IMG/VR virus record: IMGVR_UViG_3300027920_000641
Source of the DNA: a virus
DNA length: 64,000 nucleotides
Direction: 5' to 3' (one strand)
Shown piece after piece: positions 6,117 to 54,298 of the stretch. Made by a program: the position numbers and the translations under genes. The number at the start of each line of letters is the position of its first letter. Position 1 is the stretch's first letter. The notes under the pieces were generated by a model. That model did not search any database and was not told the DNA's origin. It saw only the letters and a program-made list of their open reading frames with translations.

Positions 6117-6316
6117 ATATTTTCTTTCTATTTTTACTAATTACTACTTGACTTTTTTTCTCTAGTCATATAGAGTTATTTTAATCTTTTTTTACATAGC
6201 TTTGTTCCTTAAAATAAGCGCTTAGTAAGAGGGTTCTGGCTATAAGTTTAAACCTGTTATGACTTAGCTCAGTTTCGGTTACCTGCCAAGGAGTGAGTAA
6301 CTGAGTACCAGACTTT

Positions 6317-6775
6317 TTATCTTTCAAACTCTAAGCCTTCTTTTGCAATCACACTAATCCCTCTAGTTTTTGCCCATTTCAGCGCTCCTTGCCACTCTGT
6401 GTCAGTGAAGTCTCCATCGCTAGACACCCTAATTGATGGTATGAAGTTCCCCAAAACTAAGTACACCTTCATCACATATTCGTCATATGGTTTAAACGCA
6501 GTTTTACAACAAGTAAAGTACTCATTGTCTACCGTAAAATACCAACCGCTGTCTTTTGGGTTTGATGAGTACCAGCAGGTTTCGTGTCCATCTTCTCCCT
6601 TACCATTAAACCTGATTTCCTCTTTTGTTACCAGCGGTTTACTTGGGTCGTTATATTCGAGTTGCAGTATTTCCTTTTCCCAACCCTCCTCAATTACTTC
6701 CTTGAGTATCTCCAGTGCTTTATCTGGAATATCCTCTGGTTTCTTAGTGTTGTATAGATAGTGTGTGTAGCCCAT
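6317..6775 (-). CDS. hypothetical protein
   Basis: ORF track 152 aa. Confidence 0.55.
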   Translation of the reverse strand: MGYTHYLYNTKKPEDIPDKALEILKEVIEEGWEKEILQLEYNDPSKPLVTKEEIRFNGKGEDGHETCWYSSNPKDSGWYFTVDNEYFTCCKTAFKPYDEYVMKVYLVLGNFIPSIRVSSDGDFTDTEWQGALKWAKTRGISVIAKEGLEFER

Positions 6776-6784
6776 ATATTCTCC

Positions 6785-7087
6785 TTATTTAATTATTGTT
6801 TTGATACCGACCTCTGTCCAGTGCATGTCCCGCTCTATTCCTAGCCCAAACCGCCCGCGGTACGATTGCAATTCTTCTAGTGCGAATGATCCCCACTCAT
6901 CGTTATGATCTTTGAAGATAGATACATATCCAAAAAAGATTTGATCTTTTGGGTCATATTCGGTTGCATACCAGTCTCCAGCCCCAGTGGGGTTGAAAAA
7001 GTGAGCCACCACAATGGGGTTCTCTTTTCCTTCTTGATTACCGATCTTAGCAAATCTTTCTTCCAAGCCTTTTGTCATTAGTTTCAT
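6785..7087 (-). CDS. hypothetical protein
   Basis: ORF track 100 aa. Confidence 0.5.
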   Translation of the reverse strand: MKLMTKGLEERFAKIGNQEGKENPIVVAHFFNPTGAGDWYATEYDPKDQIFFGYVSIFKDHNDEWGSFALEELQSYRGRFGLGIERDMHWTEVGIKTIIK

Positions 7088-7380
7088 AAGACTCCTATCT
7101 TTTTTAATAGCCCTTGCTCCACAAAAGCTATGTGCCTACTTGGTACTTCTTTGTCAAATATCCTCTTGAAAGCAGATGTTTTAATCACTGCAATTGACCC
7201 AGTATTTTCTTCGATTAATAACACCCCCTTAGTCAAGTACTGTTCCCTACACTCATCGCGTGGTTCGGGTGTAACGGTGTGCATTTCGAAGGTTGGTTTT
7301 AATCTTCGATCCATGAGTAGCGTGCCAGTATCTTTTCTGCAAATCGGGCAAACCGCTAGTGTTACATAAGATTTCTCCAT
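7084..7380 (-). CDS. hypothetical protein
   Basis: ORF track 98 aa; GGGGGGAAGT-ATG RBS; promoter TTGACA-16-TATAGT upstream. Confidence 0.5.
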   Translation of the reverse strand: MEKSYVTLAVCPICRKDTGTLLMDRRLKPTFEMHTVTPEPRDECREQYLTKGVLLIEENTGSIAVIKTSAFKRIFDKEVPSRHIAFVEQGLLKKIGVL

Positions 7381-13321: not shown

Positions 13322-13432
13322 GCTGTCCCCCCTCTTGTAATTATTACGTAAGCCGTTGTAGTGGCTCATTTTAGGCTTTTTACTTGTTTGATATCTTATA
13401 CTGCTAGTTTTAAATTGTAAGCCGTTCTGGTG

Positions 13433-13486
13433 CTATCTAGTAGCTATCTAGTACTTGTCTAGTGTTATCTAGTACTTTGCTAGTGG
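13433..13486. repeat. iteron-like array: 5 direct repeats YTRTCTAGTRS at 10-11-bp phasing
   Basis: ctatctagtag / ctatctagtac / ttgtctagtg / ttatctagtac / tttgctagtgg in tandem; a further ctgctagtt copy at about 13401. Confidence 0.6.
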
Positions 13487-13770
13487 CTTAGATGTACACC
13501 AGTTCCCGCCTATCTGGGTTGTCTGGGTTTTTTTGTGAATGTGCGTGTCTGCTGTCTATTATGGGGATAACAAGCAGATTGTAAACTAGATCTTACTGTA
13601 TCAAACTGTATCATTTGTAGTCAGTTTTCAATTACTTATGCTATTCAGTCGTGCAATTGATAATTATTAAGCCGTTATAGATACGCACTCGAGGTGGATT
13701 GGATCGTATAAGATATATTATGCGACGTAGTGTGCATAGTACTACATACGCGACATGGGTATATATTACT

Positions 13771-13964
13771 TGCGTGCGTGCGTGCATGCCCCTGCTACAG
13801 GGGGGAGGGGGGGTACTACCTCGAGCGTCCAGAGGAAACTATATCTATCTATATCAGAATATATCACCCCCCGCACAGGGGGAAGGGGGTAAAGCCCAAG
13901 CTTATTGTATAAGTCCTGGACGGGATATGTGTCACATCTGGATATGGGGGGGCACCCCCCCATG
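13771..13964. promoter_or_regulatory. GC-rich structured island: (TGCG)3 tract plus three C-run/G-run hairpins with flanking G-runs
   Basis: tgcgtgcgtgcgtgc; CCCCTGctaCAGGGGGgaGGGGGGG; CCCCCCgcacaGGGGGaaGGGGG; GGGGGGGcaCCCCCCC; predicted ORFs in this region are probably spurious. Confidence 0.55.
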
Positions 13965-14014
13965 GTACAAAAAGCCTAAATATTATTGAACTCAAAAAAT
14001 TTTTTGAAAAATTT

Positions 14015-15016
14015 CTACAATTTCAGGTCAGAACCATCATAGGGCCTGTTGCAGTTGCACTCGGCGCAAATGTATCTGAGGTTAGATTGAGCATGTGCTC
14101 CTCCCGCTGCAAGGGGAAGAATATGATCGAGGTGTTTTCCATCTGGGTAATGAGAGTTATCAGCCATTAGTTTTCCACAAACTGGACAGTTAATGGTGTT
14201 TTGTTTTAAATCAATTAACCATTGTGAACTAACTCTCTCTACACCATTCTTTCTCTTTAGAGCTCTTCTCTTACCCTCTTTATTTCTTGAATCAGCACTT
14301 CCCTCTGGGGAGGAATAATAACACTTCTTGCAATATCCATGCCCTTTGTGTGGATATCTTTGGCTGTGACAATTACGACAGTTTTGATAAGACTCACTCC
14401 ACCTTCTAAGCACACATTCATGGGAACAATAGTGAGTTCTTTTTGATGGACATACCAAATAATTTGTTCCGCATGTCCAACAAGTTCTGCTTTCTTTAAT
14501 TGTATTAGCAAGTTTAAATTTTTTAGCGTAAAAAAGACCAACACATCTTCTAGAACAAAACCTACCTTCACCATCGCGAGGATTCTTTTCTTTAAAAAAT
14601 TGTGTTCCGCATACTTCGCAGTGACCTATCTCTCGTTTTTTGTGACACATCTTACACAGACCATTGCCAACATGTTTTCTTTTAGTAGTTCCGCACCTAA
14701 CGCATTGAGGGTATTCCCTAGACCAGGTAAGAAGTTTTTTGTAGGTATAGGGAGAAGATGGACTTTTCCGCAAAGCATGATAGTTTTTCATTTGACAGGA
14801 ACGCGAACAATATTTCCCCGCCCCATTACGTCGCTGAGAAGGACAGTTAACATACGCGATGGGAACATACTCCTTTTTGCAAAACTGGCAGATTCTAGAA
14901 AGAACTGGCTTTATTCTACTTTTACTAGAACAACTGCGAGAACAATAGAGTCCTTTAGATGACCCTTTGGGTAGAAATAGCTCGTGACAGAATAAACACT
15001 CGGCAGGCTGGCGCAC
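14015..15016 (-). CDS. Cys-rich multi-zinc-ribbon HNH endonuclease
   Basis: At least 6 CxxC...(F/Y)CSRxC ribbons followed by the C-terminal HLDHILPLAAGGAHAQSNLRYICAECNCNR HNH motif. Confidence 0.7.
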   Translation of the reverse strand: MRQPAECLFCHELFLPKGSSKGLYCSRSCSSKSRIKPVLSRICQFCKKEYVPIAYVNCPSQRRNGAGKYCSRSCQMKNYHALRKSPSSPYTYKKLLTWSREYPQCVRCGTTKRKHVGNGLCKMCHKKREIGHCEVCGTQFFKEKNPRDGEGRFCSRRCVGLFYAKKFKLANTIKESRTCWTCGTNYLVCPSKRTHYCSHECVLRRWSESYQNCRNCHSQRYPHKGHGYCKKCYYSSPEGSADSRNKEGKRRALKRKNGVERVSSQWLIDLKQNTINCPVCGKLMADNSHYPDGKHLDHILPLAAGGAHAQSNLRYICAECNCNRPYDGSDLKL

Positions 15017-15050: not shown

Positions 15051-15079
15051 TTGACATTTGCGACATTGTCTGTTATAAT
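15051..15079 (+). promoter_or_regulatory. consensus sigma70 promoter (TTGACA-17-TATAAT)
   Basis: TTGACAtttgcgacattgtctgtTATAAT; the predicted TSS coincides with the ATG at 15087 (leaderless). Confidence 0.6.
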
Positions 15080-15086
15080 TACTGGT

Positions 15087-15524
15087 ATGATTAAAATATT
15101 TCCTCAAGTAGAACAGAAAATAGTAACTCTATATGTTAAAAAGAAGCTTTCTTGTAGAGAAATTAAGGAAGAACTTGGTTTAAACATCTCTGTTCGCCAG
15201 ATACAGAGGCGTTTGGGGAAACTAGGAGTGATTCGCAAGCCTGGAGAGGCATTTGCACTAGCTGTTGCCCAGGGAAAAGTGACTTATTACCGCAAGCCGA
15301 AGTCTTTAAATGCCCCAAAAACGGTTCTTTCTACTCTACAGCGGCACAGAGTACTTAGTAGAGATGAATTCAGGTGTCAAGACTGTGGAAATAAGGTTGA
15401 AGATGGTATTCGACTAGAAGTTGTTTTTAAAAATGGGAATATATTGGATAAGCGAGATGAGAATCTTCATTCTTTGTGTAATTTGTGTAGACTTGGTAGA
15501 CAACGGAGTGAAACTGCCTATTGA
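15087..15524 (+). CDS. HTH-domain protein with degenerate HNH-like zinc finger
   Basis: LSCREIKEELGLNISVRQIQRRL HTH; C-terminal CQDCGN...LHSLCNLCR; track ORF trimmed to the first ATG downstream of the promoter. Confidence 0.45.
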   Translation: MIKIFPQVEQKIVTLYVKKKLSCREIKEELGLNISVRQIQRRLGKLGVIRKPGEAFALAVAQGKVTYYRKPKSLNAPKTVLSTLQRHRVLSRDEFRCQDCGNKVEDGIRLEVVFKNGNILDKRDENLHSLCNLCRLGRQRSETAY

Positions 15525-15851: not shown

Positions 15852-16231
15852 AGACTGCTGACCTTAAGAATGGTCTTGACAAATCTTCGTTACTTGAGTA
15901 ATATATAGGTGTCTTAGTTCTATTTGGTTTACAAGAAAACACTCAAACTCTGGGTGTTTTTTTGTTACTAAGCGCTTATTCTGAGTATTGACTTCATGTA
16001 GTAAAGATGATATACTGTTGTCATCAAAAGCACAGTTAATAAATTGAGTATTTACTCGTGTTCTTGTCGCAAGCCACCTTGCTAGTGGTCTATGTCAAAA
16101 CAGAGTTGCCTCGAGTGAGAACCAAAGGAGGACAAGAGTGGTGAATAATCTCACGAACTGCAGTTTGCTACCATATAGACTGATCTATCTAGTCATGGTG
16201 GCACGAGTAAGTACTTAATAAGAAAGGGAAT

Positions 16232-16658: not shown

Positions 16659-16886
16659 ATGCCAACAGATACATTTCGAAAAGCGTACACGGAGTTAACC
16701 GATTTACAGAAAGAAAACGTGGCTGTTATTAAGGAAGCCGCTGTTATCTTGGAGGAGGAATTCAACCATGCCGTTCCAACTGATGAAAGAAGTGAGCGAA
16801 GCCGCTGCATGGCCATTGCTAGAACTAATTTAGAACAAGCTATTATGTGGGCAATCAAGGGTGTTACTACTCCAAGTGAAAAATAA
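16659..16886 (+). CDS. hypothetical protein
   Basis: ORF track 75 aa; AAAGGAGCTT-ATG. Confidence 0.5.
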   Translation: MPTDTFRKAYTELTDLQKENVAVIKEAAVILEEEFNHAVPTDERSERSRCMAIARTNLEQAIMWAIKGVTTPSEK

Positions 16887-17046
16887 GCTCATTAAACTAC
16901 TAGGTGGGTATACTGAGGAAGAGGTAGAAAAAATGATCTTTTCCGCTCTTTGTAAATACAAGTTAATCAAAATGCTCAAGAAAAACAACGGAACTGATAA
17001 ATTACCAGACTACGATACTTTTACTGATGGAATGAGGGAGAGATGA
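16861..17046 (+). CDS. hypothetical small protein
   Basis: ORF track 61 aa; possible start at the internal Met (16933) after GAGGAAGAGG. Confidence 0.35.
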   Translation: MLLLQVKNKLIKLLGGYTEEEVEKMIFSALCKYKLIKMLKKNNGTDKLPDYDTFTDGMRER

Positions 17047-18260
17047 AAACATTTTGTTTTGGAACACCAGACGAGGGAGCTTTAACCCAAGCACGTAATT
17101 GCGAAGCGGAAGCAGAAAAGATAATTCTAATGGCTGATAACCATAAAGGCTATGGTATGCCAGTTGGAGGCGTGGCTGTCTACAAAAATAAGGTAAGTCC
17201 AGCAGGTGTGGGATTTGATATATCTTGTGGTAATAAAGCGGTCAAGCTCGATATTGATTATGATTCTATTAAAGACAGATTACCAGAATTAGCAGGTCAG
17301 ATATGGGAAAATCTCTCATTTGGCATTGGTAGAAAGAATGAAACCCCAGTATCACACGACTTATTTAACGACCCATCGTGGCAAGAGGTTGACTTTTTGA
17401 GAGAAAGACCTGAGTTAAAATTAAAAGCAGAACAACAGTTAGGTACAATCGGTTCAGGCAATCATTATGTAGATGTGTTTAGGGATGAAAACAATCAAGT
17501 TTGGGTTGGTGTTCATTTTGGTAGTAGGGGATTCGGACACACTATTGCTTCTCATTTTATGCAGTTAGCTGGTGACAATCCAAATATTATGGATGAGACA
17601 CCCCACACACTGTCTCTCGATACAAAAGAGGGGCAAGACTATTTTAGGGCTATGGAGTTAGCAGGTAGATACGCTTATGCTGGGCGTGATTGGGTATGTG
17701 AAACAGTTGCTAATATCTTGGGTGGAAAGATAGTTGATGAGGTTCACAATCATCACAACTACGCTTGGAAAGAAACACATGGTGGAATTGAGTATGTGGT
17801 TGTGAGAAAAGGTGCTACTCCTGCATTTCCTGGTCAAAAGGGATTTGTTGGTTCAACTATGGGTGGTGTTTCAGTAATTATTGAGGGAGTGGATAGTGAG
17901 AGATCAAAAGAAGCATTTTATTCTGCTATGCACGGGGCTGGTAGGGTTATGAGTCGAACTCAGGCTGCTGGCAAGTGGAAAAAATCAGTTGAAACTAGAA
18001 CTAAGCCAGATGGAACTGAATATCAGTTTAAGAAAAGAGTGAGAACTCAAGGGCTGGTCGATTGGGATAAAGTAAAAGCTGAATTGATTGGAAAAGGGAT
18101 TATTCTCAAAGGTGGTGGGGTAGATGAAGCCCCAGAAGCATATAAGAATCTTGAGGAAGTCTTAGAGTTACATAAAGGAACTATCAACATTTTACACAGA
18201 TTAACACCACTAATTGTGTGTATGGCTGGTAGTGACGAGTTTGACCCGTACCAAGACTAG
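17043..18260 (+). CDS. rtcB: RtcB RNA 3'-phosphate/2',3'-cyclic-phosphate ligase
   Basis: GTIGSGNHYVDVFRDENNQVWVGVHFGSRGFG and SAMHGAGRVMSRT are near-identical to E. coli RtcB motifs (GTLGTGNHFIEI...HSGSRGIG; HGAGRVMSRT); 405 aa versus 408 aa. Confidence 0.9.
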   Translation: MKTFCFGTPDEGALTQARNCEAEAEKIILMADNHKGYGMPVGGVAVYKNKVSPAGVGFDISCGNKAVKLDIDYDSIKDRLPELAGQIWENLSFGIGRKNETPVSHDLFNDPSWQEVDFLRERPELKLKAEQQLGTIGSGNHYVDVFRDENNQVWVGVHFGSRGFGHTIASHFMQLAGDNPNIMDETPHTLSLDTKEGQDYFRAMELAGRYAYAGRDWVCETVANILGGKIVDEVHNHHNYAWKETHGGIEYVVVRKGATPAFPGQKGFVGSTMGGVSVIIEGVDSERSKEAFYSAMHGAGRVMSRTQAAGKWKKSVETRTKPDGTEYQFKKRVRTQGLVDWDKVKAELIGKGIILKGGGVDEAPEAYKNLEEVLELHKGTINILHRLTPLIVCMAGSDEFDPYQD

Positions 18261-18292: not shown

Positions 18293-18766
18293 ATGGTTAA
18301 AGGATTCAAACATAGTGAGGAAACAAAACAGTTAATTTCAAAAGCTGCAAAAGGAAAAGGGAAGGGCGGCTTTAATGTTAAAATTAATTGTCCTAGTTGC
18401 CAATTAATAATGTCCCCCGCCAATTTAGCAAAACATCTTGGTAGGTGCGAGAAGACAAGGGGGCTCTTTCTTATGGGTAAAGAATTAAGTGTCAAAGAAC
18501 AAAAAATACTCAGAATGATTTTGAAGCCAACAGGATGGACTTTAGAAAATTATATATATCAACATAACAAACAAAATGATAGGTGTTATATTTGTGGAGA
18601 ATTGACCAAGAAAAGACTCTATGCAGACCATTGCCACAAAGAAAACAAACCTAGAAAACTACTTTGCGTCTTGTGCAATACAGGACTTGGGGCTTTTAGA
18701 GATGACAAACAAATACTATTAAAGGCTGTATCATATTTAACGGAGTTTGACCCGTATAAAGATTAA
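18293..18766 (+). CDS. Endonuclease VII-like (T4 gp49 family) HNH nuclease
   Basis: N-terminal CPSC..C zinc ribbon; DHCHKENKPRKLLCVLCNTGLG matches the DHxH..RGLLC..CN..G Endo VII signature. Confidence 0.7.
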   Translation: MVKGFKHSEETKQLISKAAKGKGKGGFNVKINCPSCQLIMSPANLAKHLGRCEKTRGLFLMGKELSVKEQKILRMILKPTGWTLENYIYQHNKQNDRCYICGELTKKRLYADHCHKENKPRKLLCVLCNTGLGAFRDDKQILLKAVSYLTEFDPYKD

Positions 18767-20915: not shown

Positions 20916-20961
20916 CGATGGTATTGACAGTCATCATTTAGTCATATAGTGTATAACTATA

Positions 20962-21180
20962 ATGGCGAGAATTATCATTTCCCTTACGGACGAACTTTTA
21001 GAAGAGCTTAACGAGTATACTCAGCGTAGATCTTATAATCGTTCAGAGTGTATTCGTCATGCTATTAGGAATCTTATTCAGGAAGGAGTAATGTATGCAG
21101 TTCCTCAAAAAAATATTTCAGAAAAAGCTAACAATGTCAGATCTTTCAATTCAGAGGGATTGGGAGTTAGTAACTCGTAG
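20962..21180 (+). CDS. ribbon-helix-helix (CopG/Arc-like) DNA-binding protein
   Basis: MARIIISLTDELLEELNEYTQRRSYNRSECIRHAIRNLIQEG is a typical RHH fold signature. Confidence 0.6.
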   Translation: MARIIISLTDELLEELNEYTQRRSYNRSECIRHAIRNLIQEGVMYAVPQKNISEKANNVRSFNSEGLGVSNS

Positions 21181-23911: not shown

Positions 23912-23993
23912 AATAATTTAGGTTGTTGACATGTTGAATTGTAGTATGATAGTGTCCTTTGACATAGGTTGATCAGAGAAACAATCTCGGTTT

Positions 23994-31350: not shown

Positions 31351-31415
31351 AAATAAGCGCTTATTACTATAGAGTGGAGTGTTATGAAGCAGCTTTTGCG
31401 CACTAACACCGACTT

Positions 31416-37025: not shown

Positions 37026-37449
37026 TTTAGGAAGTGGAACAGATTACAGAAAGGGATGGATTAATATTGAGGTGTCTAAAGATGTAAAGGCAGATTATTA
37101 TCTTGACGTTGCGAAAGAAGTGTTGCCGTTTGCCGATGGTTCTATCGATCATATAGAAGCTATAGACTTGTTTGAACATATTTTATATCCTATTTTCACA
37201 TTCAATGAATGTTGGAGAGTTTTAAGAAAGAATGGGACAATGTATATTGAAGTACCCTATGGAGGTACAGAGGATTACTATAAAGATCCAACTCACGTGA
37301 GACCTTTTATCCCAAAAACATTCAAATATTTTGCGGAGTGGAATACCTCTCCAGCTTATGGAATCAAAACATGGGAAATTATTAGAATCCACTCAACATT
37401 GGGCGGAGAAAATCAAAATAGAATTTATGTCACCATGAGAAAACCATGA
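37000..37449 (+). CDS. class I SAM-dependent methyltransferase (Methyltransf_11-like)
   Basis: INLGSG (motif I), LPFADGSIDHIEAIDLFEHI, VLRKNGTMYIEVP (post-II/III). Confidence 0.65.
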   Translation: MDYYNMKINLGSGTDYRKGWINIEVSKDVKADYYLDVAKEVLPFADGSIDHIEAIDLFEHILYPIFTFNECWRVLRKNGTMYIEVPYGGTEDYYKDPTHVRPFIPKTFKYFAEWNTSPAYGIKTWEIIRIHSTLGGENQNRIYVTMRKP

Positions 37450-38815: not shown

Positions 38816-39647
38816 ACTATACCAGCCACCAGAAGTAGAGATTGCGATCTCGCAAGTTTTAAAGAGTGGCAGATATGTGAAGGGTCCACTTGCTATAGAG
38901 TTCGCTCGGGTTTGGGCAGCTCGGTGTGGAATGAAATACGGAGTATCTGTTGGAAGTGGCGCCCAGGCGCTAGAACTGGCTATACGGGCAGTTTTTGGAG
39001 ATGGGAGATCAACTATTACCTATACTCCCCATACCTTTAAGGCAGTTCCTAACGCAATCAGATTAATGGGTCACATCGCTATCGGACAGCTTTATGAACC
39101 GATGTTATATGCACACCATATCCATGATCACAAACTGGACTATGTTCCATTTCTTGAGGATTGCTCTCATTGTCATGGAGTTGAGCCAGTTGCTGAGACG
39201 GCTATTTTTTCCTTATTTCCAGCAAAAATACTGGGAGCCGTTGGAGAAGCTGGGGTGATTGTAACTAACAACATAAATGTTTTCAAGTTTTGTTCCCAAC
39301 TGGCAGATCATGCTGAACCAGATGGTACAAATGCCAGAATGGATGAAATTCAGGCGGCAGCCCTACTGGCTAAGTTACCGTATTTAGATAGATGGACACA
39401 AAGAAGAAAAGAAATAGTCAAAATGTATGATGCTGGACTTGGGATGCATACCCCTGGGGAGTATCACTACATGTACTGTATCGATGGAAACCAGGGTATG
39501 GTTGATAAGTTATTGTCATTTGAAATTGAATCCAAACTAGTCTATAATGAACCATACGTAGCCCTGCCATTCTACCCAGAATTGACTAATGAACAGGTGC
39601 GAGAAATCATAAGATGCGTCACTCAATTATCGGAAACGGCTTTATAG
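38799..39647 (+). CDS. DegT/DnrJ/EryC1/ArnB-family sugar aminotransferase (short form)
   Basis: VLKSGRYVKGPLAIEFARVWAARCGMKYGVSVGSGAQALELAIRA is the DegT N-terminal signature; FSLFPAKILGAVGEAGVIVTNN is the PLP-Lys region; 282 aa versus about 370 typical. Confidence 0.6.
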   Translation: MIKLFELYQPPEVEIAISQVLKSGRYVKGPLAIEFARVWAARCGMKYGVSVGSGAQALELAIRAVFGDGRSTITYTPHTFKAVPNAIRLMGHIAIGQLYEPMLYAHHIHDHKLDYVPFLEDCSHCHGVEPVAETAIFSLFPAKILGAVGEAGVIVTNNINVFKFCSQLADHAEPDGTNARMDEIQAAALLAKLPYLDRWTQRRKEIVKMYDAGLGMHTPGEYHYMYCIDGNQGMVDKLLSFEIESKLVYNEPYVALPFYPELTNEQVREIIRCVTQLSETAL

Positions 39648-40423
39648 CCGAGAAACACGCTGAAGCGATTAAGCAGTATGGTGGAGAGCTCTACGGTAGT
39701 TATGATACTATTCCCTCCAGAGCAAAATACGGAATTCCTTTTTCTAACCCAGAAGAGCTAATTGAGAAAAGTGACGTTATTCATATTTGTGCCCCAAATG
39801 TTTTTCATATTCCCTATCTCAATATGTGTAAGGGTAAAAAGGTGATTGTTGAGAAACCTATCGGGATTAGTGTTGAGCAGACTAAGTTGATTACCAATAA
39901 TAATGCGGCCGTGTGCTACCAGAGGAGATTCAATAAACAGTGTCAAGAAATAAAAATGATGTGTGGCATAGAGAAGCCTACCCATATTTTTGCTAACATT
40001 TTCGTACAAAGAGATCCTCAATACTGGGAGTGTTGGAGGGGGGACAAAGATTATTCTGGTGGTGGAGCATTCATGAATATTGGTATTCACTATCTTGATT
40101 TAATGCAGTGGTGGACTGGAGAAGCTGGTAGGGTAGAAAAAGCCGAAATAGGGGTGTTTGACAGGGCTGTAGATGAGGGTGGTTCTGCTGAGCTGGTTTT
40201 TGGAGAGACTAAGGCAAGAATGCTCTTATCGTCACGATTCCATAAGAGGGAAATAGAGGTAATGGTAGTTTGGAAAAATAGGACTTTTATATACGATGTT
40301 GATGATGCCACTCATCTAGATGTTATGCGGGATTATCTGGGAAATGGAATTTCTTTTGTTACTCCAAGAGAAGCAATCCCCAGTCTCAAATTAGCAGAAG
40401 AGATATATAAAATAAGCGCTTAG
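39614..40423 (+). CDS. Gfo/Idh/MocA-family NAD-dependent sugar oxidoreductase (WbpB-like)
   Basis: IIGNGFIAEKHAEAI Rossmann motif, VIHICAPNVFH, EKPIGISVEQ, the classic family motifs. Confidence 0.75.
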   Translation: MRHSIIGNGFIAEKHAEAIKQYGGELYGSYDTIPSRAKYGIPFSNPEELIEKSDVIHICAPNVFHIPYLNMCKGKKVIVEKPIGISVEQTKLITNNNAAVCYQRRFNKQCQEIKMMCGIEKPTHIFANIFVQRDPQYWECWRGDKDYSGGGAFMNIGIHYLDLMQWWTGEAGRVEKAEIGVFDRAVDEGGSAELVFGETKARMLLSSRFHKREIEVMVVWKNRTFIYDVDDATHLDVMRDYLGNGISFVTPREAIPSLKLAEEIYKISA

Positions 40424-40425
40424 TA

Positions 40426-41174: not shown

Positions 41175-41909
41175 ATGTCATACAAAAATAAAGCAGATGC
41201 CTTGTTATATTATAAAAAATGGTATCAAAAAGTAAAACATCGTTATTCCAAGTTGTGTATTCATTGTCAAAATAGTTTTCAAACAAGATATAAACAACAA
41301 TCATGCTGTTCACTGGCCTGTGCTGGAGCACATAGAAAAAATACAGTTATTTGTTTACAATGTGGTAGAGCTTTTTATGCACCTCCTTCAAAGAAAAGAA
41401 GATTCTGTTCACAAAAGTGTTTTATGTCGTCTCCAGCTCAAAAAGAGGTAATGAGAATACGCATGCAACAGCGATGGGCAGATGGGGAATTTAAAGATTT
41501 TAAGTGGCCTGGACCCTCCGCCGAATACAGAGAGTGTTGTAGAGCGAGATTCAGAAAACTAACGGGAAATAGAAATCATATGTGGAAGGGCGGTATCTCA
41601 AAGGTAAAAAATCAAGTCAGAAAAATGCCAGAATATAAAAAGTGGAGAAATAGTATTTTTGAACGTGACAACTACACATGTTTACTATGTGGTGGGAGAA
41701 GCAAAAAGGGTTGTCATCAGGATATAAATGCAGATCATCACCCAATTGCTTTTGCTAAAATTATTGCAGAAAACAATATCGAGAATATACGGAATGCTTC
41801 TGTTTGTACGTTATTATGGGATATTAACAATGGGAGAACTCTTTGTCTCAATTGTCATAAAGATGTGACTTTTAAAAACCTGGCCAGTCTTGGACTTTCT
41901 AAAACGTAG
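41175..41909 (+). CDS. HNH endonuclease with multiple zinc ribbons
   Basis: CIHC..CCSLAC, CLQCG..FCSQKC, CLLCGG...HHPIAFAKII...LCLNCHKD. Confidence 0.75.
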   Translation: MSYKNKADALLYYKKWYQKVKHRYSKLCIHCQNSFQTRYKQQSCCSLACAGAHRKNTVICLQCGRAFYAPPSKKRRFCSQKCFMSSPAQKEVMRIRMQQRWADGEFKDFKWPGPSAEYRECCRARFRKLTGNRNHMWKGGISKVKNQVRKMPEYKKWRNSIFERDNYTCLLCGGRSKKGCHQDINADHHPIAFAKIIAENNIENIRNASVCTLLWDINNGRTLCLNCHKDVTFKNLASLGLSKT

Positions 41910-44490: not shown

Positions 44491-45166
44491 GGTTTCAATC
44501 ATTATCCCAGTTTATCAAAGTCACGAAATCGTAAGAAGGCAGTTGCTTTATTTGGATCGACTAAGTCTTCCGATCGAAGTAATTATAGTTGATGACAATT
44601 CAACTCCGCCTATTGACGGGGCAACATTACGGATGAACAACGATTTAGCATGGACACAGGGACTTGCCCGTAATGCTGGAGCAGAGTATGCATCTGGGAA
44701 TTATTTGTTTATGACAGATATAGACCATATTCTTTCGAAAGAAGCCATTGAGGATGCCCTAGTTTTCACGGGAAATAAAATGATATTTAGAAGACAAATA
44801 GCCATACTCGATGAAAACGGAGAAATTAGACAAGACAGTACCACCCTGGAGGATTGGGGTTACGAGAATAAAAACCTAGGCGCCTCTGTTCATGGAAATA
44901 CGTTTGTAATTAAGAAGACGGTTTTTGATGAACTTGGTGGCTATGACGAGCATGCTTGTACTAGAGGGTATCACCCTGTTTCTAGGAGTGGCGATGATTG
45001 TTTTTTTAACTCTAAATGGAATAAGAAATATAGGGGGGAAGCTCCAGCCGTTGGAAGAGATATTTATATGTTTCCCATCGGTCGATTTCATAAAAATGGC
45101 GATCTAAATCCGAAGGGCCTATTCCATAATTTAAGTCAAAGCAAGCAAGAAAGGATGTACAAATGA
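44480..45166 (+). CDS. family-2 glycosyltransferase
   Basis: VSIIIPVYQS, EVIIVDDNS, GLARNAGAEYASGNYLFMTDIDHIL (DxD). Confidence 0.8.
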   Translation: MLNRVSIIIPVYQSHEIVRRQLLYLDRLSLPIEVIIVDDNSTPPIDGATLRMNNDLAWTQGLARNAGAEYASGNYLFMTDIDHILSKEAIEDALVFTGNKMIFRRQIAILDENGEIRQDSTTLEDWGYENKNLGASVHGNTFVIKKTVFDELGGYDEHACTRGYHPVSRSGDDCFFNSKWNKKYRGEAPAVGRDIYMFPIGRFHKNGDLNPKGLFHNLSQSKQERMYK

Positions 45167-45948
45167 ACAAAGCGATAATTGGCTATGGCTGGGTTGGAAA
45201 GGCGATGAGCGTCCTTTTCCCAGATGCTTTTATTTATGACCCATATTATTTTGACGATTCTGGTTCTGTTTTTTTGAGTGATCAAAATGTCGTTAATGAA
45301 TGTGATGTTGCTTTTATATGTGTTCCGACTCCAAGTATTGACGGAGGGAAACTGGATGTCTCTATTGTGGAAGAAATTGTTGGCTGGTGCAAATGCCCAC
45401 TGATTGTTATCCGCTCTACTGTCAACCCAGGAACCTGTGATTATCTTGCAAAAAAGTATAATAAGCGCTTAGTGATGCAACCAGAGTATTTAGGAGAAAC
45501 CATTAACCACCCGATGACCGACCAAAAAACTCGTCCATTTCTAATCATCGGTGGTGAACCCGATGACCGAAGAATGCTGATTGATCTTTACACATCAGCT
45601 TATAACGCTAACATCAACATCCGACAAGTAACTGCTTATGAAGCAGAAGTTATCAAACTCTCTGAGAACAGAGCTATAGCCTTCAAAATTGCTGAGTGTC
45701 AGGAGTTATATGATGTCTGTATGGCCTCAGGCGTTGATTACTATGTTATAAGAGAGGCGGTTTATTCTGACGACCCGCGCTTTAACCTATGGTGGACATT
45801 CATTTATCCAGAAAGAAGGGGGTTCAATTCCAAGTGTTTGCCAAAGGATGTATACGCTTGGGCAGCTTGGGCAGAATCAGTCGGTTATAAACCAGCGGTA
45901 ACAAGAGCATTGCTTGAAAGGAACAAACAATGGACCTCTCAATTTTAA
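45163..45948 (+). CDS. UDP-glucose/GDP-mannose dehydrogenase-family protein (short, WbpA-like)
   Basis: IIGYGWVGKA NAD motif, CDVAFICVPTPS, catalytic-Cys motif FNSKCLPKDV; 261 aa, so the C-terminal UDP-binding domain is absent. Confidence 0.6.
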   Translation: MNKAIIGYGWVGKAMSVLFPDAFIYDPYYFDDSGSVFLSDQNVVNECDVAFICVPTPSIDGGKLDVSIVEEIVGWCKCPLIVIRSTVNPGTCDYLAKKYNKRLVMQPEYLGETINHPMTDQKTRPFLIIGGEPDDRRMLIDLYTSAYNANINIRQVTAYEAEVIKLSENRAIAFKIAECQELYDVCMASGVDYYVIREAVYSDDPRFNLWWTFIYPERRGFNSKCLPKDVYAWAAWAESVGYKPAVTRALLERNKQWTSQF

Positions 45949-49534: not shown

Positions 49535-52500
49535 ATGGCATATACCGTACCAGCTACTAATGCAATGAATTTTGCGTTAGAGGTACATACTCCACCAGCT
49601 ACCAATGCAATGAATTTTGAGATTGCCGATGGGACAGCTCCAACGGTTGCTTTGAACACACCAGCGGATAGCTCAGGCATAAATGATACAACTCCAACAT
49701 TAAATTTTACTGGAACAGATGAAGAAGAAGATGATGTTGAATATCAAGTACAAATATCGCCAGCAAAAACAACGCTTGCATTAGAACTCAGAGAAAACTC
49801 AAACGATTTTCATAATAACTTTGACGGAACTGATACAAATATTTCCTATGGAATGACTACCACAAAATTATCAGCAATATTTAATGGAACATCGTCAAAA
49901 ATACTAATTACCAATACAATAGCAAGTCTGAGCGTTTTTTCTATTGGTTTGTATGTTTACACAACGGACAATGTGTCTGAGAGAAAGTATTTTGTTAGAG
50001 ATGCGACTAGTGGTACAGATTGGGCATTTTATGTGGGGCAGTATGACGGAAAATATTATTGGGGTATGCAAACAGATACTTGGCATACATACTATACATT
50101 AACTACTGTAGGACTAAATGAGTGGAAGTCAATCATATTCACTTATGATGGTACAACTGCAAAACTTTATGTAAATACAAGTTTGATTGATACACAAACG
50201 CCTGGCAGTATTGTCAGCCAAACTAGCAAACCATTCAAGCTAGGCTATTTAGATACGCAACAATTTCATTCTGGTTCTTTATTTAATTTTTTTGTATTTG
50301 ATTATGTTATATCAGAGGATGAAAGAAATGCTCTGTTTGCTTGTGGTGGGGTTGGATTAAATTATCCCTTTTTTGTTGAACCACCTGGGGCAGAAACATA
50401 TAGTTTCCCCTATGCTCTCAGTTATCAATCAACATTAGATAGTGGTTTTACATCTGGACATCCATTCGGCTCTGGTGATGCGATAGATTTTACTATACCG
50501 ATTACCGATGAGCTTGATGTTGGCACTGAGTATTTCTGGCAAGTAAGAGCTAAAGATCCGCTTGGGAGCACTATATATGGAGATTGGAGTGCAATGAGGT
50601 CATTTGAGGTATTATCTTCATCTAGTCAAAGTCCAAGTCAAAGTCCAAGCCTTAGTCCATCAAGTTCTGTTTCACCAAGTGAAGCGTCAACATGGTACAA
50701 CGCAAGCTGGTTATATAGAGTAAAAGTTACTGTTTTGGCCACAGAAGTTGATGTAGATTGCACAAATTTTCCAGTTTATTGTGACTTATCTGATTTACCT
50801 GCTGATTTTCATACTAATGTAAAAGCAAATGGCGCAGATATTAGAATAACAAAAGCAGATGGCACAACAGAAATTCCAAGAGAAGTAGTTTTCTATGATC
50901 AGGCTACTGATACTGGAGAACTTCATTTTAAAGGTGATATAGATTCTGATACAGATACTGATTTTTATGTTTATTATGGAAATTCTGGTGCCACTGAGCC
51001 AGCCATAGATTCTACTTATGGTGCAGAAAATGTCTGGTCATCAGATTATGAGGTTGTTGCGCATATGCAGCAAGATCCTAGTGGAGGTGCACCTCAGATA
51101 TTAGATAGTACTACTAATGATGTAGATGGCACAACAAATGGTTCGATGGCATCAGGTGATTTAGTTGCTGGGCAGTTGGCAGGTAATGCTTTAGATTTAG
51201 ATAGTGATGATTGGATAAATTTTGGTGATAATGGTGATTATAGAACTTATGATAAAACAGTGTCGATATGGGTAAGTACGAGTGATACAGATGCTTATAT
51301 AGTGGCAAAATCAAAGTATGGTGCAGAATCAGGTAGATGGGCAATAGGTACTCCAACAACTCCAACATCTTTTGTTAATGTAGGTGGCACAGATTCTGTG
51401 ATGTCATCAGCTTCGGCAATAAATAGCAGTTGGCACTTATTGACAATGGTTGTTGATAGAAACAGTTATCACAAAATGTATGTTGATGGTCAACAAGTTG
51501 CATCAAATACAGGAACAAATATTACTAATTATTCTGCTTCAGATTTGAATACAGCAAATATACTTCTTGTAGGTGGTTATAATGATGCCGCAGGAACAAG
51601 TATACACGCTTCTGCTTTTAAATATGTTGGAAAAGTAGATGAACTAAGAGTAAAGAAAGCAGCAGATTCAGCAGAATGGATCTCGACTGAATATAACAAT
51701 CAATCAAGCCCAAGTACTTTTTATGATGTAGGAATACAAGAAGAAAATACAGCTGCTTCTTCATCAGTATCTCCTAGTCAAAGTCCAAGCTTAAGTCCTA
51801 GTTCAAGTATAAGTCCTTCGCAAAGTCCTAGCCAAAGTCCAAGTCTTAGTCCTAGTTCAAGTGTTTCTCCATCATTTCCTCCAGATGTAAATACGTATTA
51901 TTTTGATGAAAGTGATGAAGGAGTAACAGATCCAAATAATGTTTGGACGAATGATGCAAATGCTTTTGACAGTGATGCGACTCCTTCAACGTATGCTAGT
52001 ACATCAACAGTTGGTTCTGTCTCTAGTAATTATCTAAAGGCTGAAGGAACTTCTGCTCCAAGTTCAGCTACAACAACTATTACTCAGGTTAGAGCTAGAA
52101 TGTATGGCAGGAGTGGTTGGGGTAGTTATCTTACTCTTACCGCACCGACAGGAGGATGGGATTGGGGACATGTCGCTGCATTAGAAATTAAATGTTATTC
52201 TACAAGTTCAGAAACTGGCAATGTTAGTGCTACTGTTTATACTGATGGTTTAGGAGAATCACTTGGAGAAATTTCGAGCAATAGTGCTTTGCCTGGATCT
52301 AGAGTTTATAAAATTGAAATCGAAGTTACTTCTGATCCTGTTGATGAATCGTCATCTATTAGTCCAAGTGTAAGTCCAAGTTTAAGTCCTAGCCAAAGTC
52401 CTTCACTTAGTCCATCATCTAGTGTAAGTCCTAGCCAAAGTCCTTCACTTAGTCCATCATCTAGTGTAAGTCCAAGTCAAAGTCCTAGTCAAAGTCCAAG

Positions 52501-54157
52501 CTTAAGTCCTAGCTCAAGTGTAAGCCCTAGTCAGAGTCCTAGTCAAAGTCCTAGTCTTAGTCCATCATCTAGTGTAAGTCCTAGTCAAAGTCCTAGCCAA
52601 AGTCCTAGTCTTAGTCCTAGCTCAAGTGTAAGTCCTAGTCAAAGTCCTAGTCAAAGCCCTAGTCTTAGTCCATCATCTAGTGTAAGTCCTAGTCAAAGTC
52701 CTAGTCAAAGTCCTTCACTTAGTCCTAGCTCAAGCATAAGTCCTAGTCAAAGTCCTAGTCAAAGCCCTAGCCTTAGTCCATCATCTAGTGCAAGCCCTAG
52801 TCAAAGCCCTAGTCAAAGTCCAAGCCTTAGTCCTAGCTCAAGCGTAAGTCCTAGCCAAAGTCCTAGTCAAAGCCCAAGTCTTAGTCCTAGTTCAAGTGTA
52901 AGTCCTTCACAAAGTCCTAGTCAAAGTCCAAGTCTTAGTCCTAGTTCAAGCGCAAGTCCTTCACAAAGCCCTAGTCAAAGTCCAAGTTTAAGTCCTAGTT
53001 CAAGTGTAAGTCCTTCACAAAGTCCTAGTCAAAGTCCTTCACTTAGTCCATCATCTAGTGTAAGTCCTAGTCAAAGTCCTAGTCAAAGCCCTAGTCTTAG
53101 TCCATCATCTAGTGTAAGTCCTAGTCAAAGTCCTAGCCAAAGCCCTAGCCGCAGTCCTAGTAGCTCTGTCAGTCCATCCGAAATATCGTCTGAGTCTTCA
53201 TCGATATCACCATCTAGTTCACTTTCTCCAAGTGTTTCTCCATCACTTAGTGCCAGTCAAAGTCCTTCACTTAGTCCAAGCAGTTCAGTTAGTTCATCTC
53301 TCAGTCCTAGTTCCAGCAAATCACCTAGTGAAAGTCTTTCCCTCAGTCCTTCAGCAAGTCAGAGCCCAAGTAAATCTCCAAGTCAATCCCCCTCCCTTAG
53401 TCCAAGTAGTTCTGCTAGTCCCAGTCAATCTCCGAGTGCAAGTCCTTCTATTTCTCCAAGTTCAAGTAAGTCACCTAGCCAGTCACCTTCGGTTAGTCCA
53501 AGTCTTTCTCCCTCTAGTTCAAAAAGTCCAAGTCAAAGCCCTTCAGAGTCTCCTAGTTTAAGTCCCTCAAGTAGTGAAAGCCCTTCTCAATCTCCATCAG
53601 GGTCACCATCTTTTTCACCAAGTGCCTCGATCAGTCCATCAGTCTCTCCTTCCCAATCTCCTAGTTTAAGTCCATCTACTTCTCAGTCACCAAGTCAATC
53701 ACCCTCCATCTCTCCTAGCCTATCACCAAGCAGTTCAAAAAGTCCAAGTCAAAGCCCCAGTCAAAGTCCCTCACTTAGTCCTTCCTCAAGTGCAAGTCCT
53801 AGTCAAAGTCCTTCCTCAAGTCAATCTCCAAGCATAAGCCCATCTGTATCCCCAAGTAGCAGTGTTTCTCCATCCACAAGTCCAAGTTCGTCTCAATCAC
53901 CCAGTCAGTCTCCATCTGTTTCAGAAAGTGAATCTCCATCTATCTCGCCATCTCCTAGCCTTAGTCCTAGCTCTAGTGTAAGTCCAAGTCAGAGCCCTAG
54001 TTTGTCTCCATCAAGTAGTGAATCTGCATCTGTATCTCCTTCGCCATCCCCACCTTTTTCTTCTGGCTATTCAAAACTGGCATATTTTGATAATGAAGTT
54101 GGTTATTATATTCGTATGATTGGTCATATCCCTTACTACAAAAAAGTTATTGAATAA
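49535..54157 (+). CDS. giant fibre/adhesin-like protein: LamG/ConA-like domains + DUF2341-like domain + about 15 tandem 18-aa Ser-Pro repeats
   Basis: WHLLTMVVDRNSYHKMYVDGQQVA and NEWKSIIFTYDGTTAKLYVN match the LamG pattern; WYNASWLYRVKVTV..NFPVY...DIRIT..DGTTEIP...FYVYYGN matches the DUF2341 pattern; (SPSQSPSQSPSLSPSSSV)n. Confidence 0.75.
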   Translation: MAYTVPATNAMNFALEVHTPPATNAMNFEIADGTAPTVALNTPADSSGINDTTPTLNFTGTDEEEDDVEYQVQISPAKTTLALELRENSNDFHNNFDGTDTNISYGMTTTKLSAIFNGTSSKILITNTIASLSVFSIGLYVYTTDNVSERKYFVRDATSGTDWAFYVGQYDGKYYWGMQTDTWHTYYTLTTVGLNEWKSIIFTYDGTTAKLYVNTSLIDTQTPGSIVSQTSKPFKLGYLDTQQFHSGSLFNFFVFDYVISEDERNALFACGGVGLNYPFFVEPPGAETYSFPYALSYQSTLDSGFTSGHPFGSGDAIDFTIPITDELDVGTEYFWQVRAKDPLGSTIYGDWSAMRSFEVLSSSSQSPSQSPSLSPSSSVSPSEASTWYNASWLYRVKVTVLATEVDVDCTNFPVYCDLSDLPADFHTNVKANGADIRITKADGTTEIPREVVFYDQATDTGELHFKGDIDSDTDTDFYVYYGNSGATEPAIDSTYGAENVWSSDYEVVAHMQQDPSGGAPQILDSTTNDVDGTTNGSMASGDLVAGQLAGNALDLDSDDWINFGDNGDYRTYDKTVSIWVSTSDTDAYIVAKSKYGAESGRWAIGTPTTPTSFVNVGGTDSVMSSASAINSSWHLLTMVVDRNSYHKMYVDGQQVASNTGTNITNYSASDLNTANILLVGGYNDAAGTSIHASAFKYVGKVDELRVKKAADSAEWISTEYNNQSSPSTFYDVGIQEENTAASSSVSPSQSPSLSPSSSISPSQSPSQSPSLSPSSSVSPSFPPDVNTYYFDESDEGVTDPNNVWTNDANAFDSDATPSTYASTSTVGSVSSNYLKAEGTSAPSSATTTITQVRARMYGRSGWGSYLTLTAPTGGWDWGHVAALEIKCYSTSSETGNVSATVYTDGLGESLGEISSNSALPGSRVYKIEIEVTSDPVDESSSISPSVSPSLSPSQSPSLSPSSSVSPSQSPSLSPSSSVSPSQSPSQSPSLSPSSSVSPSQSPSQSPSLSPSSSVSPSQSPSQSPSLSPSSSVSPSQSPSQSPSLSPSSSVSPSQSPSQSPSLSPSSSISPSQSPSQSPSLSPSSSASPSQSPSQSPSLSPSSSVSPSQSPSQSPSLSPSSSVSPSQSPSQSPSLSPSSSASPSQSPSQSPSLSPSSSVSPSQSPSQSPSLSPSSSVSPSQSPSQSPSLSPSSSVSPSQSPSQSPSRSPSSSVSPSEISSESSSISPSSSLSPSVSPSLSASQSPSLSPSSSVSSSLSPSSSKSPSESLSLSPSASQSPSKSPSQSPSLSPSSSASPSQSPSASPSISPSSSKSPSQSPSVSPSLSPSSSKSPSQSPSESPSLSPSSSESPSQSPSGSPSFSPSASISPSVSPSQSPSLSPSTSQSPSQSPSISPSLSPSSSKSPSQSPSQSPSLSPSSSASPSQSPSSSQSPSISPSVSPSSSVSPSTSPSSSQSPSQSPSVSESESPSISPSPSLSPSSSVSPSQSPSLSPSSSESASVSPSPSPPFSSGYSKLAYFDNEVGYYIRMIGHIPYYKKVIE
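52351..53170 (+). repeat. tandem 54-nt coding repeat (about 15 copies) encoding SPSQSPSQSPSLSPSSSV
   Basis: Near-identical units with synonymous variation; continues as degenerate Ser-Pro repeats to about 54060. Confidence 0.85.
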
Positions 54158-54240
54158 TGACTGATTATCTAGTTGACTAAATTATTTTAGTTAGATATAG
54201 TGACAAGAAAATAGTTAGATAGCAAAGCAATTGCGTTTAA

Positions 54241-54268
54241 CCACCTAATAAAAGAGGTGGTTTTTTTT
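54241..54268 (+). terminator. rho-independent terminator
   Basis: ccacct-aataaaag-aggtgg followed by T8. Confidence 0.75.
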
Positions 54269-54298
54269 ATTACTAAGCGCTTATTACAAGGAAATTCT

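Follow-up and report, generated by a model that had tools for sequence, protein, structure and literature searches.

A 14-bp palindrome recurring across the genome of an uncultured SU10-like phage as a predicted regulator-binding site

Six copies and the genes around them

The window analyzed here, a 64,000-nucleotide stretch of IMG/VR record IMGVR_UViG_3300027920_000641, belongs to an uncultured phage of the SU10-like podovirus type with a genome of ~100 kb. It contains six exact copies of the 10-bp palindrome TAAGCGCTTA, at 6215, 15969, 31354, 40413, 45462 and 54274. Five of these positions were given correctly in the original prediction; the fifth copy, entered there at 45472, is at 45462, a typo-level error. 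All six fit the 14-mer AMTAAGCGCTTAKT, or A-M-TAAGCGCTTA-K-T (6/6 versus 0.01 expected), and the ranges below are those of the 14-mer.

Copy 1 (AATAAGCGCTTAGT, 6213..6226) lies in a 200-bp spacer between the minus-strand early genes 6317-6775 and 5871-6116. The -10 of a plus-strand promoter-like site (6148..6176, TTGACT-17-TAGAGT) is ~39 nt upstream of it; this site is located within the minus-strand early region, is directed at the copy and has a -10 region matching the late-type promoters. Copy 2 (ACTAAGCGCTTATT, 15967..15980) is found between two plus-strand transcription signals. Upstream is a promoter with a leader and an intrinsic terminator (15876..15963; TTGACA-17-TAATAT, hairpin ACACTC/GGGTGT plus T-run), and the copy starts 5 nt past the T-run. 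Directly downstream is a TG-extended sigma70-type promoter (15988..16016, TTGACT-17-TATACT), and the copy ends 9 nt upstream of its -35. The operon behind this promoter encodes a membrane protein, an Acb2/Tad1-like protein and RtcB.

Copy 3 (AATAAGCGCTTATT, 31352..31365) starts 3 nt past the stop codon of a small basic-protein gene (31174-31350), and 20 nt separate the end of the copy from the ATG (31384) of an 11-codon uORF, which overlaps the TPR-glycosyltransferase start at 31416 as ATGA. Copy 4 (AATAAGCGCTTAGT, 40411..40424) extends across the TAG stop (40421-40423) of a GFO/IDH/MocA oxidoreductase gene, with the next ATG (40426) 3 nt on. Copy 5 (AATAAGCGCTTAGT, 45460..45473) is intragenic and specifies codons N-K-R-L of a UDP-glucose/GDP-mannose dehydrogenase-like ORF (45163-45948). 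Copy 6 (ACTAAGCGCTTATT, 54272..54285) follows the T-run of a leader terminator (the terminator being at 54239-54270) and precedes both the ribosome-binding site and the start codon (ATG 54299) of the SU10-type adaptor gene. The plus-strand promoter, leader and terminator upstream of it (54173..54270; TTGACT-17-TATAGT, AACCACCT..AGGTGGTT plus T8) are kept in relatives, which are without the palindrome.

The claims that one copy supplies the oxidoreductase stop and that another is inside the dehydrogenase gene both agree with this map, the copy at 40413 giving the TA of the TAG. Four copies were also said to be 15-60 bp upstream of gene starts. This is accurate for 54274 (15 nt to ATG 54299) and 31354 (52 nt to ATG 31416) and inaccurate for 40413 (only 3 nt to ATG 40426) and 15969 (~250 nt to ATG 16232).

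Recurrence and placement along the genome

Enrichment of the palindrome was upheld by an exact-match count, since dinucleotide shuffles of the window contained a mean of 0.02 copies and a maximum of 1, versus 6 observed. Degenerate copies are nearly absent from the window. A single 1-mismatch copy was found, at 46892, matches with up to two mismatches are at background (23 total versus 28 expected), and no half-sites were detected, TAAGCGC being confined to the six copies. T/A is present at +/-7 on 12/12 flanks. Literature matches to the 10-mer were limited to primers and the plant ocs element.

The window was then lengthened with identical-strain contigs of the same phage genome, which generated a composite of 91,470 bp. 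Leftward, the contig stops ~300 bp past the window start, and a metagenome scan found none of this phage's own contigs and gave no extension. Three further exact copies lie outside the window, for a total of nine, 5-20 kb apart. TAAGCGCTTA is the only palindromic 10-mer with >2 copies in the composite. The spacing of ~10 kb is more even than random (CV 0.48, P=0.02), the smallest gap is 5,049 bp (P=0.006), and the even spacing is consistent with about one site per gene block. The outer flanks read A-[A/C]...[G/T]-T in 7/9 copies and GC...TT or GC...GG in the rest. The copies are unbiased in their orientation to transcription, the flank asymmetry is not significant, and no secondary motif co-occurs within +/-150 bp of the sites.

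Of the nine copies, 6/9 are in non-coding spacers, 1/9 is at a stop/start junction and 2/9 are intragenic, while spacers make up only ~7% of the window. The copies cover the early region, the anti-defence operon (Acb2/Tad1-like, RtcB), the virion-glycosylation cluster, the tail module, the tRNA/recombination operon and the replication module. Control of the late or glycosylation genes, as originally proposed, is therefore too narrow a description.

Two of the three additional copies lie in or against promoters. At ~90.2 kb of the genome (contig L125, 1277-1286) the palindrome fills the 17-bp spacer of a minus-strand TTGACA-17-TATAAT promoter (1293..1265), which matches the sigma70 consensus at 12/12 positions, as no other promoter in that 18 kb does, and leads into a tRNA array and SSB. 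At ~74.8 kb (contig L123, 12577) the copy is flush against the -35 of TTGACT-17-TATAGT. The third copy, at 81.3 kb, is intragenic. Dyads in promoter spacers are frequent in this phage group, so control from an operator in the spacer would fit the lineage.

The copies at 40413, 54274 and 31354 are 3-20 nt before start codons and two copies come after terminator T-runs, as might be expected of a signal acting in the transcript, whether for RNA processing, as a translational operator or within a terminator. We regard a role in RNA as highly improbable. A loopless 10-nt perfect palindrome cannot make a stable hairpin alone, folds around the sites have no common structure (z-scores -1.6, 0.15 and 1.2), with only the adjacent terminator folding, and no Rfam matches were obtained. 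Conservation is also indifferent to orientation relative to transcription, and the promoter-spacer copy would stay untranscribed from that promoter.

A phage-specific promoter read by the phage's own RNA polymerase or sigma factor was rejected, since early and late genes have TTGACA-type sigma70 promoters, copies occur 3-15 nt from start codons, and orientation is unbiased.

The original prediction also offered a homing-endonuclease or restriction-like target as an alternative. A palindrome of 10-14 bp that is perfectly invariant and conserved at its centre does resemble an enzyme site, and AGCGCT is the Eco47III/AfeI site. The consensus for the programmed nicks of phage T5 includes GCGC. The window also contains six HNH/EndoVII-type genes, at 14015-15016, 15051-15524, 18293-18766, 28695-29201, 36360-37025 and 41175-41909, the last assigned to the HNH type only from ~28-41% identity to HNH-type genes of relatives and lacking a Pfam match. 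However, the motif shows strong enrichment and no avoidance, and the endonuclease genes do not consistently adjoin it, 3/6 sites being >3 kb off. A symmetric site would be cut in both strands, and a nuclease target would leave unexplained why one copy occupies a promoter spacer and another directly adjoins a -35. A target for a sequence-specific nuclease or nickase, whether T5-like or homing/HNH, is thus quite unlikely in our estimation.

The predicted operator and known systems

Recurrence about every 10 kb, mostly between genes and once in the spacer of a perfect promoter, makes the site of a genome-wide regulator the most likely reading. The copy within the 12/12 promoter, the copy abutting a -35 and the copy at 15969, 9 bp upstream of a -35, have operator geometry and support the operator for a dimeric regulator first suggested from the six copies, which is the best-supported reading. 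We lean, by a modest degree, toward the view that the 14-bp palindrome is recognized sequence-specifically by a two-fold-symmetric (dimeric) DNA-binding protein with a genome-wide action on transcription by the host RNA polymerase. The enrichment, the invariance, the bias to non-coding DNA, the placement in promoters and the restriction to this lineage are observed; we infer the protein binding, the dimeric state and the direction of regulation. Several points count against an operator, among them the failure to find a binding protein and the absence of the motif from relatives, both described below. Nine invariant 10-mers with zero degenerate copies are unusual for a transcription-factor regulon. 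The distances to promoters are also heterogeneous, with three copies remote from any recognizable promoter.

Under the operator reading, a protein bound to the site filling the tRNA/SSB promoter spacer (~90.2 kb) would occlude or modulate RNA polymerase, and the sites that abut a -35 (74.8 kb) or shortly precede one (15969) might act in the same way. Past the leader terminators (15969 and 54274), the bound protein could be a roadblock, or the site could be a loading or anchoring point acting on the downstream gene block. The intergenic sites (6215, 31354 and 40413) and the intragenic sites (45462 and 81.3 kb) may likewise affect the downstream block as roadblocks or as loading or anchoring points.

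The closest analogues appear to be KorB OB sites, CcpA cre boxes and mycobacteriophage stoperators. The CIR operators of the Streptomyces phage phiC31 are also highly conserved inverted repeats in multiple intergenic regions, but they are 17 bp long, cluster in the early region and are recognized by a known temperate-phage repressor. The stoperators of cluster A mycobacteriophages (L5 and relatives) resemble the present sites in that a short site occurs in many copies, in short intergenic gaps and in structural-gene regions, with a proposed block of elongation as well as initiation (PMC9283540). In contrast to the unbiased perfect palindrome, a stoperator has an asymmetric sequence aligned with the direction of transcription and binds the monomeric immunity repressor of a temperate phage (PMC9283540). 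No lysogeny genes were found in the 91 kb covered, and no repressor (of immunity or otherwise) or integrase was detected.

The palindrome, TAAGC|GCTTA, is contiguous and of even length with C-G at its centre, the signature of LacI/GalR-type operators (PMC4052901). Cre boxes are active upstream of the -35, over promoters and as roadblocks deep in genes (PMC3463425), a range of positions that matches the spread of the phage sites. The phage 10-mer corresponds to positions 3-12 of the fully symmetric cre TGTAAGCGCTTACA, and the core A4A5-N-C7G8-N-T10T11 of the consensus WTGNNARCGNWWWCAW (PMC3463425) is present, with AAGCGCTT in 9/9 copies. Yet the strongly conserved G2/C13 (outer TG...CA) occurs in 0/9 copies on either strand, cre boxes are degenerate whereas the phage copies are invariant, and a LacI-family gene was not found in the phage's 91 kb.

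KorB OB sites of the IncP plasmid RK2, like ParB-parS systems, are multiple near-invariant contiguous palindromes, 13-16 bp long, over a mobile genome of 60-100 kb; the OB sites precede promoters by 4-10 bp or by 45 to >1000 bp (PMC11790492). The phage sites have a comparable arrangement, some closely preceding promoters, at a distance of a few bp, and others kilobases off or intragenic, and the AGC-GCT-flavoured centre is shared with the OB core TTTAGCGGCTAAA. The two sites that precede a -35 by 0 and 9 bp recall the proximal OB sites. These likenesses would be explained if the palindromes, perfect, dispersed and evenly ~10 kb apart with intragenic copies included, were KorB/ParB-type (OB- or parS-like) loading sites, from which a phage ParB/Srx-family protein slides or spreads to give long-range silencing or genome organization, in place of local action at an operator of the classical kind. 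Differences are evident in the half-site, ATAAGC in the phage and TTTAGC in KorB OB (TTTAGCSGCTAAA, PMC11790492), and in the setting, since KorB belongs to a plasmid and one of the phage sites is inside a promoter spacer. The phage yielded neither a canonical ParB/KorB domain nor a KorA-like partner. The parS consensus is TGTTNCACGTGAAACA, which the phage palindrome does not match.

Candidate binding proteins and relatives

The binding protein may be phage- or host-encoded. Precomputed annotations and our own Pfam/PHROG scans of the ~91 kb identified no LacI, PBP, KorB or canonical ParB domain. Among small regulators just one is clear, an RHH protein (20962-21180). It was excluded as the binder because it is conserved in relatives without the motif, including L109, with an identical RIIISL beta-strand.

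Outside the window, the same genome encodes a 241-aa ParB/Srx-like protein, which matches PHROG 12305 (E 4.7e-34) and has the GxxRxxA-type motif IDGQHRLLAA. Its best PDB match, the ParB/Srx regulator SbnI, is weak (E 0.06). There is no Pfam ParBc match, only a weak match to GmrSD_N (E 0.0096), and the C-terminal half gave neither a detectable HTH homologue nor a PDB profile match. Among 80 IMG/VR loci encoding homologues, repeated palindromic 10-mers are fewer than in shuffles (11 versus 16.4), TAAGCGCTTA is absent, and the long GC-containing palindromes have no common motif. This protein is a speculative candidate for the binder, and loading sites of the ParB/KorB type seem unlikely to us.

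We hold out similarly little expectation for a broader proposal, in which the sites load a divergent phage ParB/Srx-family clamp, or else hijack a host regulator of the LacI/CcpA sugar-sensing type, and a lytic phage of ~100 kb thereby silences or times its gene blocks. If true, it would mean KorB-like long-range control, or a phage programme coupled to host carbon status. We know of no description of either in virulent phages. With a ParB/Srx-like protein or a host sugar regulator as the binder, the mechanism would be of broader interest. If the sites are operators of whatever kind, they would define a compact and readily testable regulon, reaching from the early genes to the tRNA arrays, in a large, uncultured and otherwise unannotated SU10-like podovirus-type family with genomes of ~100 kb. 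The 14-mer would offer a handle for capture of the regulator by DNA affinity, and a consensus promoter with a built-in putative operator would be a natural example reusable in synthetic circuits.

Conservation at the same gene starts in related phages, a check proposed with the original prediction, was not observed. The motif is missing at orthologous positions in all relatives with 55-75% protein identity, and so is not core circuitry of the family. By these comparisons it is lineage-specific. L209, which was set aside, has only the primase-helicase in common with this phage (80% aa); its portal is 37% identical and the motif is absent.

The relatives also bear on whether the palindrome is a recombination or module-boundary element that marks junctions of cassette exchange, in the manner of the promoter-stem-loop cassettes known from T4-type phages. 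Among them the glycosylation cluster is highly mosaic, and in L089 and L091 the homologue of gene 35770 comes directly before that of gene 40426, the window having ~4 kb of additional genes that end exactly at 40413. No partner copy is present at the left end of this ~4-kb insertion, though, the genes flanking copies 31354 and 54274 are syntenic in relatives, and no site-specific recombinase was found. A scan of IMG/VR for TTACTAAGCGCTTA (TTAC plus the motif) returned 73 contigs, all singletons at chance level, 0/73 with a second core copy. A boundary element is on this evidence very unlikely.

Two further observations concern coding DNA. An apparent compensatory change between L006 (TAAGCGCTTA) and L012 (TAAACGTTTA) is a synonymous change in codons S-N-K-R-L-F and is therefore not evidence. 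The repeated 14-mer ATTACTATARCAGA in L087, considered as a promoter, is instead a coding tandem repeat.

Copy number and position of the palindrome

Six exact copies of the 10-bp palindrome TAAGCGCTTA were found in the window, beginning at 6215, 15969, 31354, 40413, 45462 and 54274. Dinucleotide-preserving shuffles of the window gave a mean of 0.02 copies and a maximum of one, versus the six observed, which bears out the original prediction that the repeat exceeds chance. Five of the predicted start positions were correct, and the fifth, 45472, should read 45462. There was a single one-mismatch copy in the window, at 46892, and two-mismatch copies were at background level (all matches 23, versus 28 expected). 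The heptamer TAAGCGC is confined to the six copies within the window, and therefore the element is all-or-none. The extended 14-mer A-M-TAAGCGCTTA-K-T fits 6/6 window copies (0.01 expected), and T (A on the other strand) is present seven bases from the centre in 12/12 flanks. No co-occurring second motif was found within ±150 bp of the window copies.

Contigs of the identical strain, taken from the same series of samples and with 100% identity in the window overlap, were used to extend the sequence to a 91,470-bp composite. Three further exact copies of TAAGCGCTTA bring the total to nine, and no other palindromic 10-mer exceeds two copies in the composite. The nine copies are more evenly spaced than random points (CV 0.48, P=0.02), with a smallest gap of 5,049 bp (P=0.006). 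The enrichment of the palindrome is real and highly non-random.

Spacers of ≥30 bp, taken from a crude gene list, make up 7.2% of the window and contain 4/6 copies. Copy 6215 sits in the gap separating two early genes, and the -10 of a plus-strand late-type promoter (6148-6176) is 39 nt upstream of it. Copy 15969 begins 5 nt past a leader terminator's T-run; downstream, 9 nt separate its end from the -35 of a promoter at 15988-16016 (TTGACT-17-TATACT). Copy 31354 is in the spacer between a small basic-protein gene and the uORF/TPR-glycosyltransferase start, and copy 54274 in the spacer between a leader terminator and the ribosome-binding site of the adaptor gene. As predicted, copy 40413 spans the oxidoreductase stop codon, its end 3 nt from the next ATG, and copy 45462 is within a dehydrogenase-like gene. 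Placement 15-60 bp upstream of gene starts, claimed for four copies, applies to only two window copies.

Beyond the window, the copy at ~74.8 kb follows a run of six tRNA genes by 8 nt and directly abuts the -35 of TTGACT-17-TATAGT. At ~90.2 kb the palindrome is inside the 17-bp spacer of a promoter that reads TTGACA-A-TAAGCGCTTA-GTGAGG-TATAAT in the gene direction. This promoter drives the second tRNA array and SSB, and no other promoter in those 18 kb matches the consensus at 12/12 positions. The copy at ~81.3 kb is within a gene for a 278-aa product; its retention in a relative 81.6% identical is weak evidence, because 0.816^10 = 0.13.

A putative operator and its candidate binders

The promoter-linked copies point to a genome-wide operator for a putative dimeric regulator as the most probable reading of the palindrome, and we hold it with slightly better than even confidence; an operator for a dimeric regulator was also the original suggestion. 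Operators are classically found where three of these copies lie: in a promoter spacer, directly against a -35 and 9 bp before a -35. The palindrome is even and uninterrupted, and its central CG never varies, which points to a protein that binds as a symmetric dimer and reads the middle of the site. LacI/GalR proteins bind in this way (PMC4052901), and palindromes that are likewise contiguous are bound by ParB/KorB-type proteins (PMC11790492). Copies past terminators, at gene junctions and within genes would then serve as roadblocks or loading points; most CcpA cre boxes work as roadblocks beyond the start site (PMC3463425), and KorB can act from distal sites (PMC11790492). Readings of the palindrome as a nuclease, recombination or RNA element are less likely. 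RNA folding around the sites shows no shared structure, and the window has no Rfam matches.

TAAGCGCTTA is identical to the central ten bases of a symmetric cre box, but no copy has the flanking TG...CA of cre, to which the strongly conserved G2 belongs. The palindrome is therefore not a canonical cre. KorB OB sites are alike in layout but differ in sequence. Mycobacteriophage stoperators also have a similar layout, whereas the phage palindrome is symmetric and orientation-free. The palindrome is a new example of an already known kind of arrangement, and would be of wider interest should its binder prove to be a clamp of the ParB type or a sugar regulator of the host.

No gene of LacI type was seen in the 91 kb, and a host factor may bind the palindrome. 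A phage-encoded candidate is a 241-aa ParB/Srx-like protein (14166-14891 of L125, a locus of the same genome; ~76.6-77.3 kb), which matches PHROG 12305 (E 4.7e-34) and contains an IDGQHRLLAA motif; its Pfam and PDB support is weak. Repeated palindromes were not in excess in 80 loci with homologues of this protein. That the palindrome is instead a ParB-type loading site is improbable. More than 300 IMG/VR phage proteins belong to the ParB/Srx-like family, the majority encoded on ~40-kb contigs, and the motif MEVIDGQHRL is invariant among them. An RHH protein (20962-21180) was rejected as the binder because the same DNA-reading strand is kept in relatives without the motif. The promoter of the RHH gene has a different dyad.

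The palindrome in related phages

Relatives' loci (55-75% protein identity) were fetched via the portal, the adaptor, the 603-aa tail protein and the closest portal homologues. None has the palindrome at orthologous positions, so the conservation at the same gene starts that had been proposed as a check is absent. Upstream of the glycosyltransferase gene, two relatives (L109, L110) keep the flanking leader with unrelated bases in place of the palindrome. Upstream of the adaptor gene, three others (L088, L090, L091) keep the promoter-leader-terminator cassette without it. Because the relatives lack the motif at these positions, the palindrome is a lineage-specific addition in this phage.

One compared locus, L006, has two exact copies, at 3423 and 9477, both coding (TerL gene and scaffold gene). 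Locus L012, with 84-88% nucleotide identity to L006, has two-mismatch versions at both places (5074-5253, 10029), a difference that is suggestive, not decisive. A 20-nt stretch at the L006 scaffold copy, ATAGTAATAAGCGCTTATTT, is identical to the opposite strand at window copy 31354.

Promoters, leaders and genome organization

The portal, capsid and adaptor are SU10-type. No nucleotide match to the window was found among 50,697 deposited phage records, and their proteins reach at most 31% identity to its capsid protein. The portal has homologues in a large family of uncultured phages, and the longest of their contigs group at 96-104 kb in length; identity to the nearest relative is only 73%. 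The early block (1-15 kb, minus strand) is driven by near-identical perfect sigma70 promoters, plus-strand genes begin at about 16 kb, and a large glycosylation cluster separates the head genes from the adaptor gene.

The early promoters (minus strand 7841-7813, 8757-8729, 9980-9952 and 11689-11661; plus strand 15051-15079) are perfect or near-perfect TTGACA-17-TATAAT with ~35 bp in common. The shared stretch includes a spacer dyad, ATAACA..TGTTAT / ACACT-N-AGTGT, possibly another and distinct kind of operator; the compared phage locus L209 has a similar dyad in a promoter spacer. The late-type promoter at 6148-6176(+), TTGACT-17-TAGAGT, is antisense into minus-strand early genes, and its -10 region is nearly identical to that of the RHH gene promoter at 20924. 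It could produce an antisense RNA for early-gene shut-off. Late-type promoters at 20924-20952, 31121-31149, 54173-54201 and 62006-62034 share a TTAGT-like spacer box that precedes a TATAGT-like -10 by ~3-4 nt. Relatives keep this box too, a hint that the sigma70 holoenzyme may be modified or assisted.

Plus-strand operon heads consist of a sigma70-type promoter, a 50-80-nt leader with a small hairpin, and an intrinsic terminator, followed by the gene. This layout (15876-15964, 23926-24045, 54173-54270 and 62006-62098, and upstream of the adaptor gene in L088, L090 and L091) is kept in relatives. By analogy with lambda PR'-tR' or T4 promoter-stem-loop cassettes, it suggests that late expression may be under antitermination control.

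In the operon that follows copy 15969 are the genes for a protein with an Acb2/Tad1 hairpin domain (16659-16886; Pfam E 3e-13), a predicted anti-CBASS/Thoeris sponge, and for the RNA ligase RtcB (17043-18260). It looks like a counter-defence operon. An 11-codon uORF (31384-31419) with a good ribosome-binding site, GGAG, has an ATGA overlap with the TPR-glycosyltransferase start at 31416, which suggests translational coupling.

Six HNH/EndoVII-type homing-endonuclease-like genes were found (14015-15016(-), 15051-15524(+), 18293-18766, 28695-29201, 36360-37025 and 41175-41909). The gene at 15051 encodes an HTH, and in its product other residues stand in place of the HNH histidines (LEVVFKNG); the gene at 41175 has no Pfam match, its HNH type being assigned solely from weak similarity to relatives' HNH-type genes. 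Several sugar-pathway genes near the HNH genes have partial Pfam domains (e.g. 37000-37449, 38799-39647, 45163-45948).

The window has no tRNA genes. Two arrays with 12 tRNAs in total lie beyond it, at 12012-12569 of L123, another locus of this genome (~74.2-74.8 kb), and 95-1273 of L125 (~90.2-91.4 kb); one has a perfect consensus promoter upstream and a palindrome copy at its edge. Near the arrays is a replication/recombination module (Prim-Pol/DnaB, DnaD-like loader, SSB, RecA-like, RusA, class II RNR, ThiF). A ~650-bp non-coding gap in the window (13370-14014), with no tRNA or Rfam matches, contains four to five ~11-bp iterons, GCTATCTAGTA, at 13432-13485 and other short repeats, and could be an origin or regulatory region. 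The early block also contains a pentapeptide-repeat protein gene at 626-1150(-). A 1540-aa Laminin-G/ConA-like protein (49535-54157(+)) has long degenerate short-period coding repeats (6-, 12- and 54-bp), which are shared with a 532-aa protein (60404-62002(+)).
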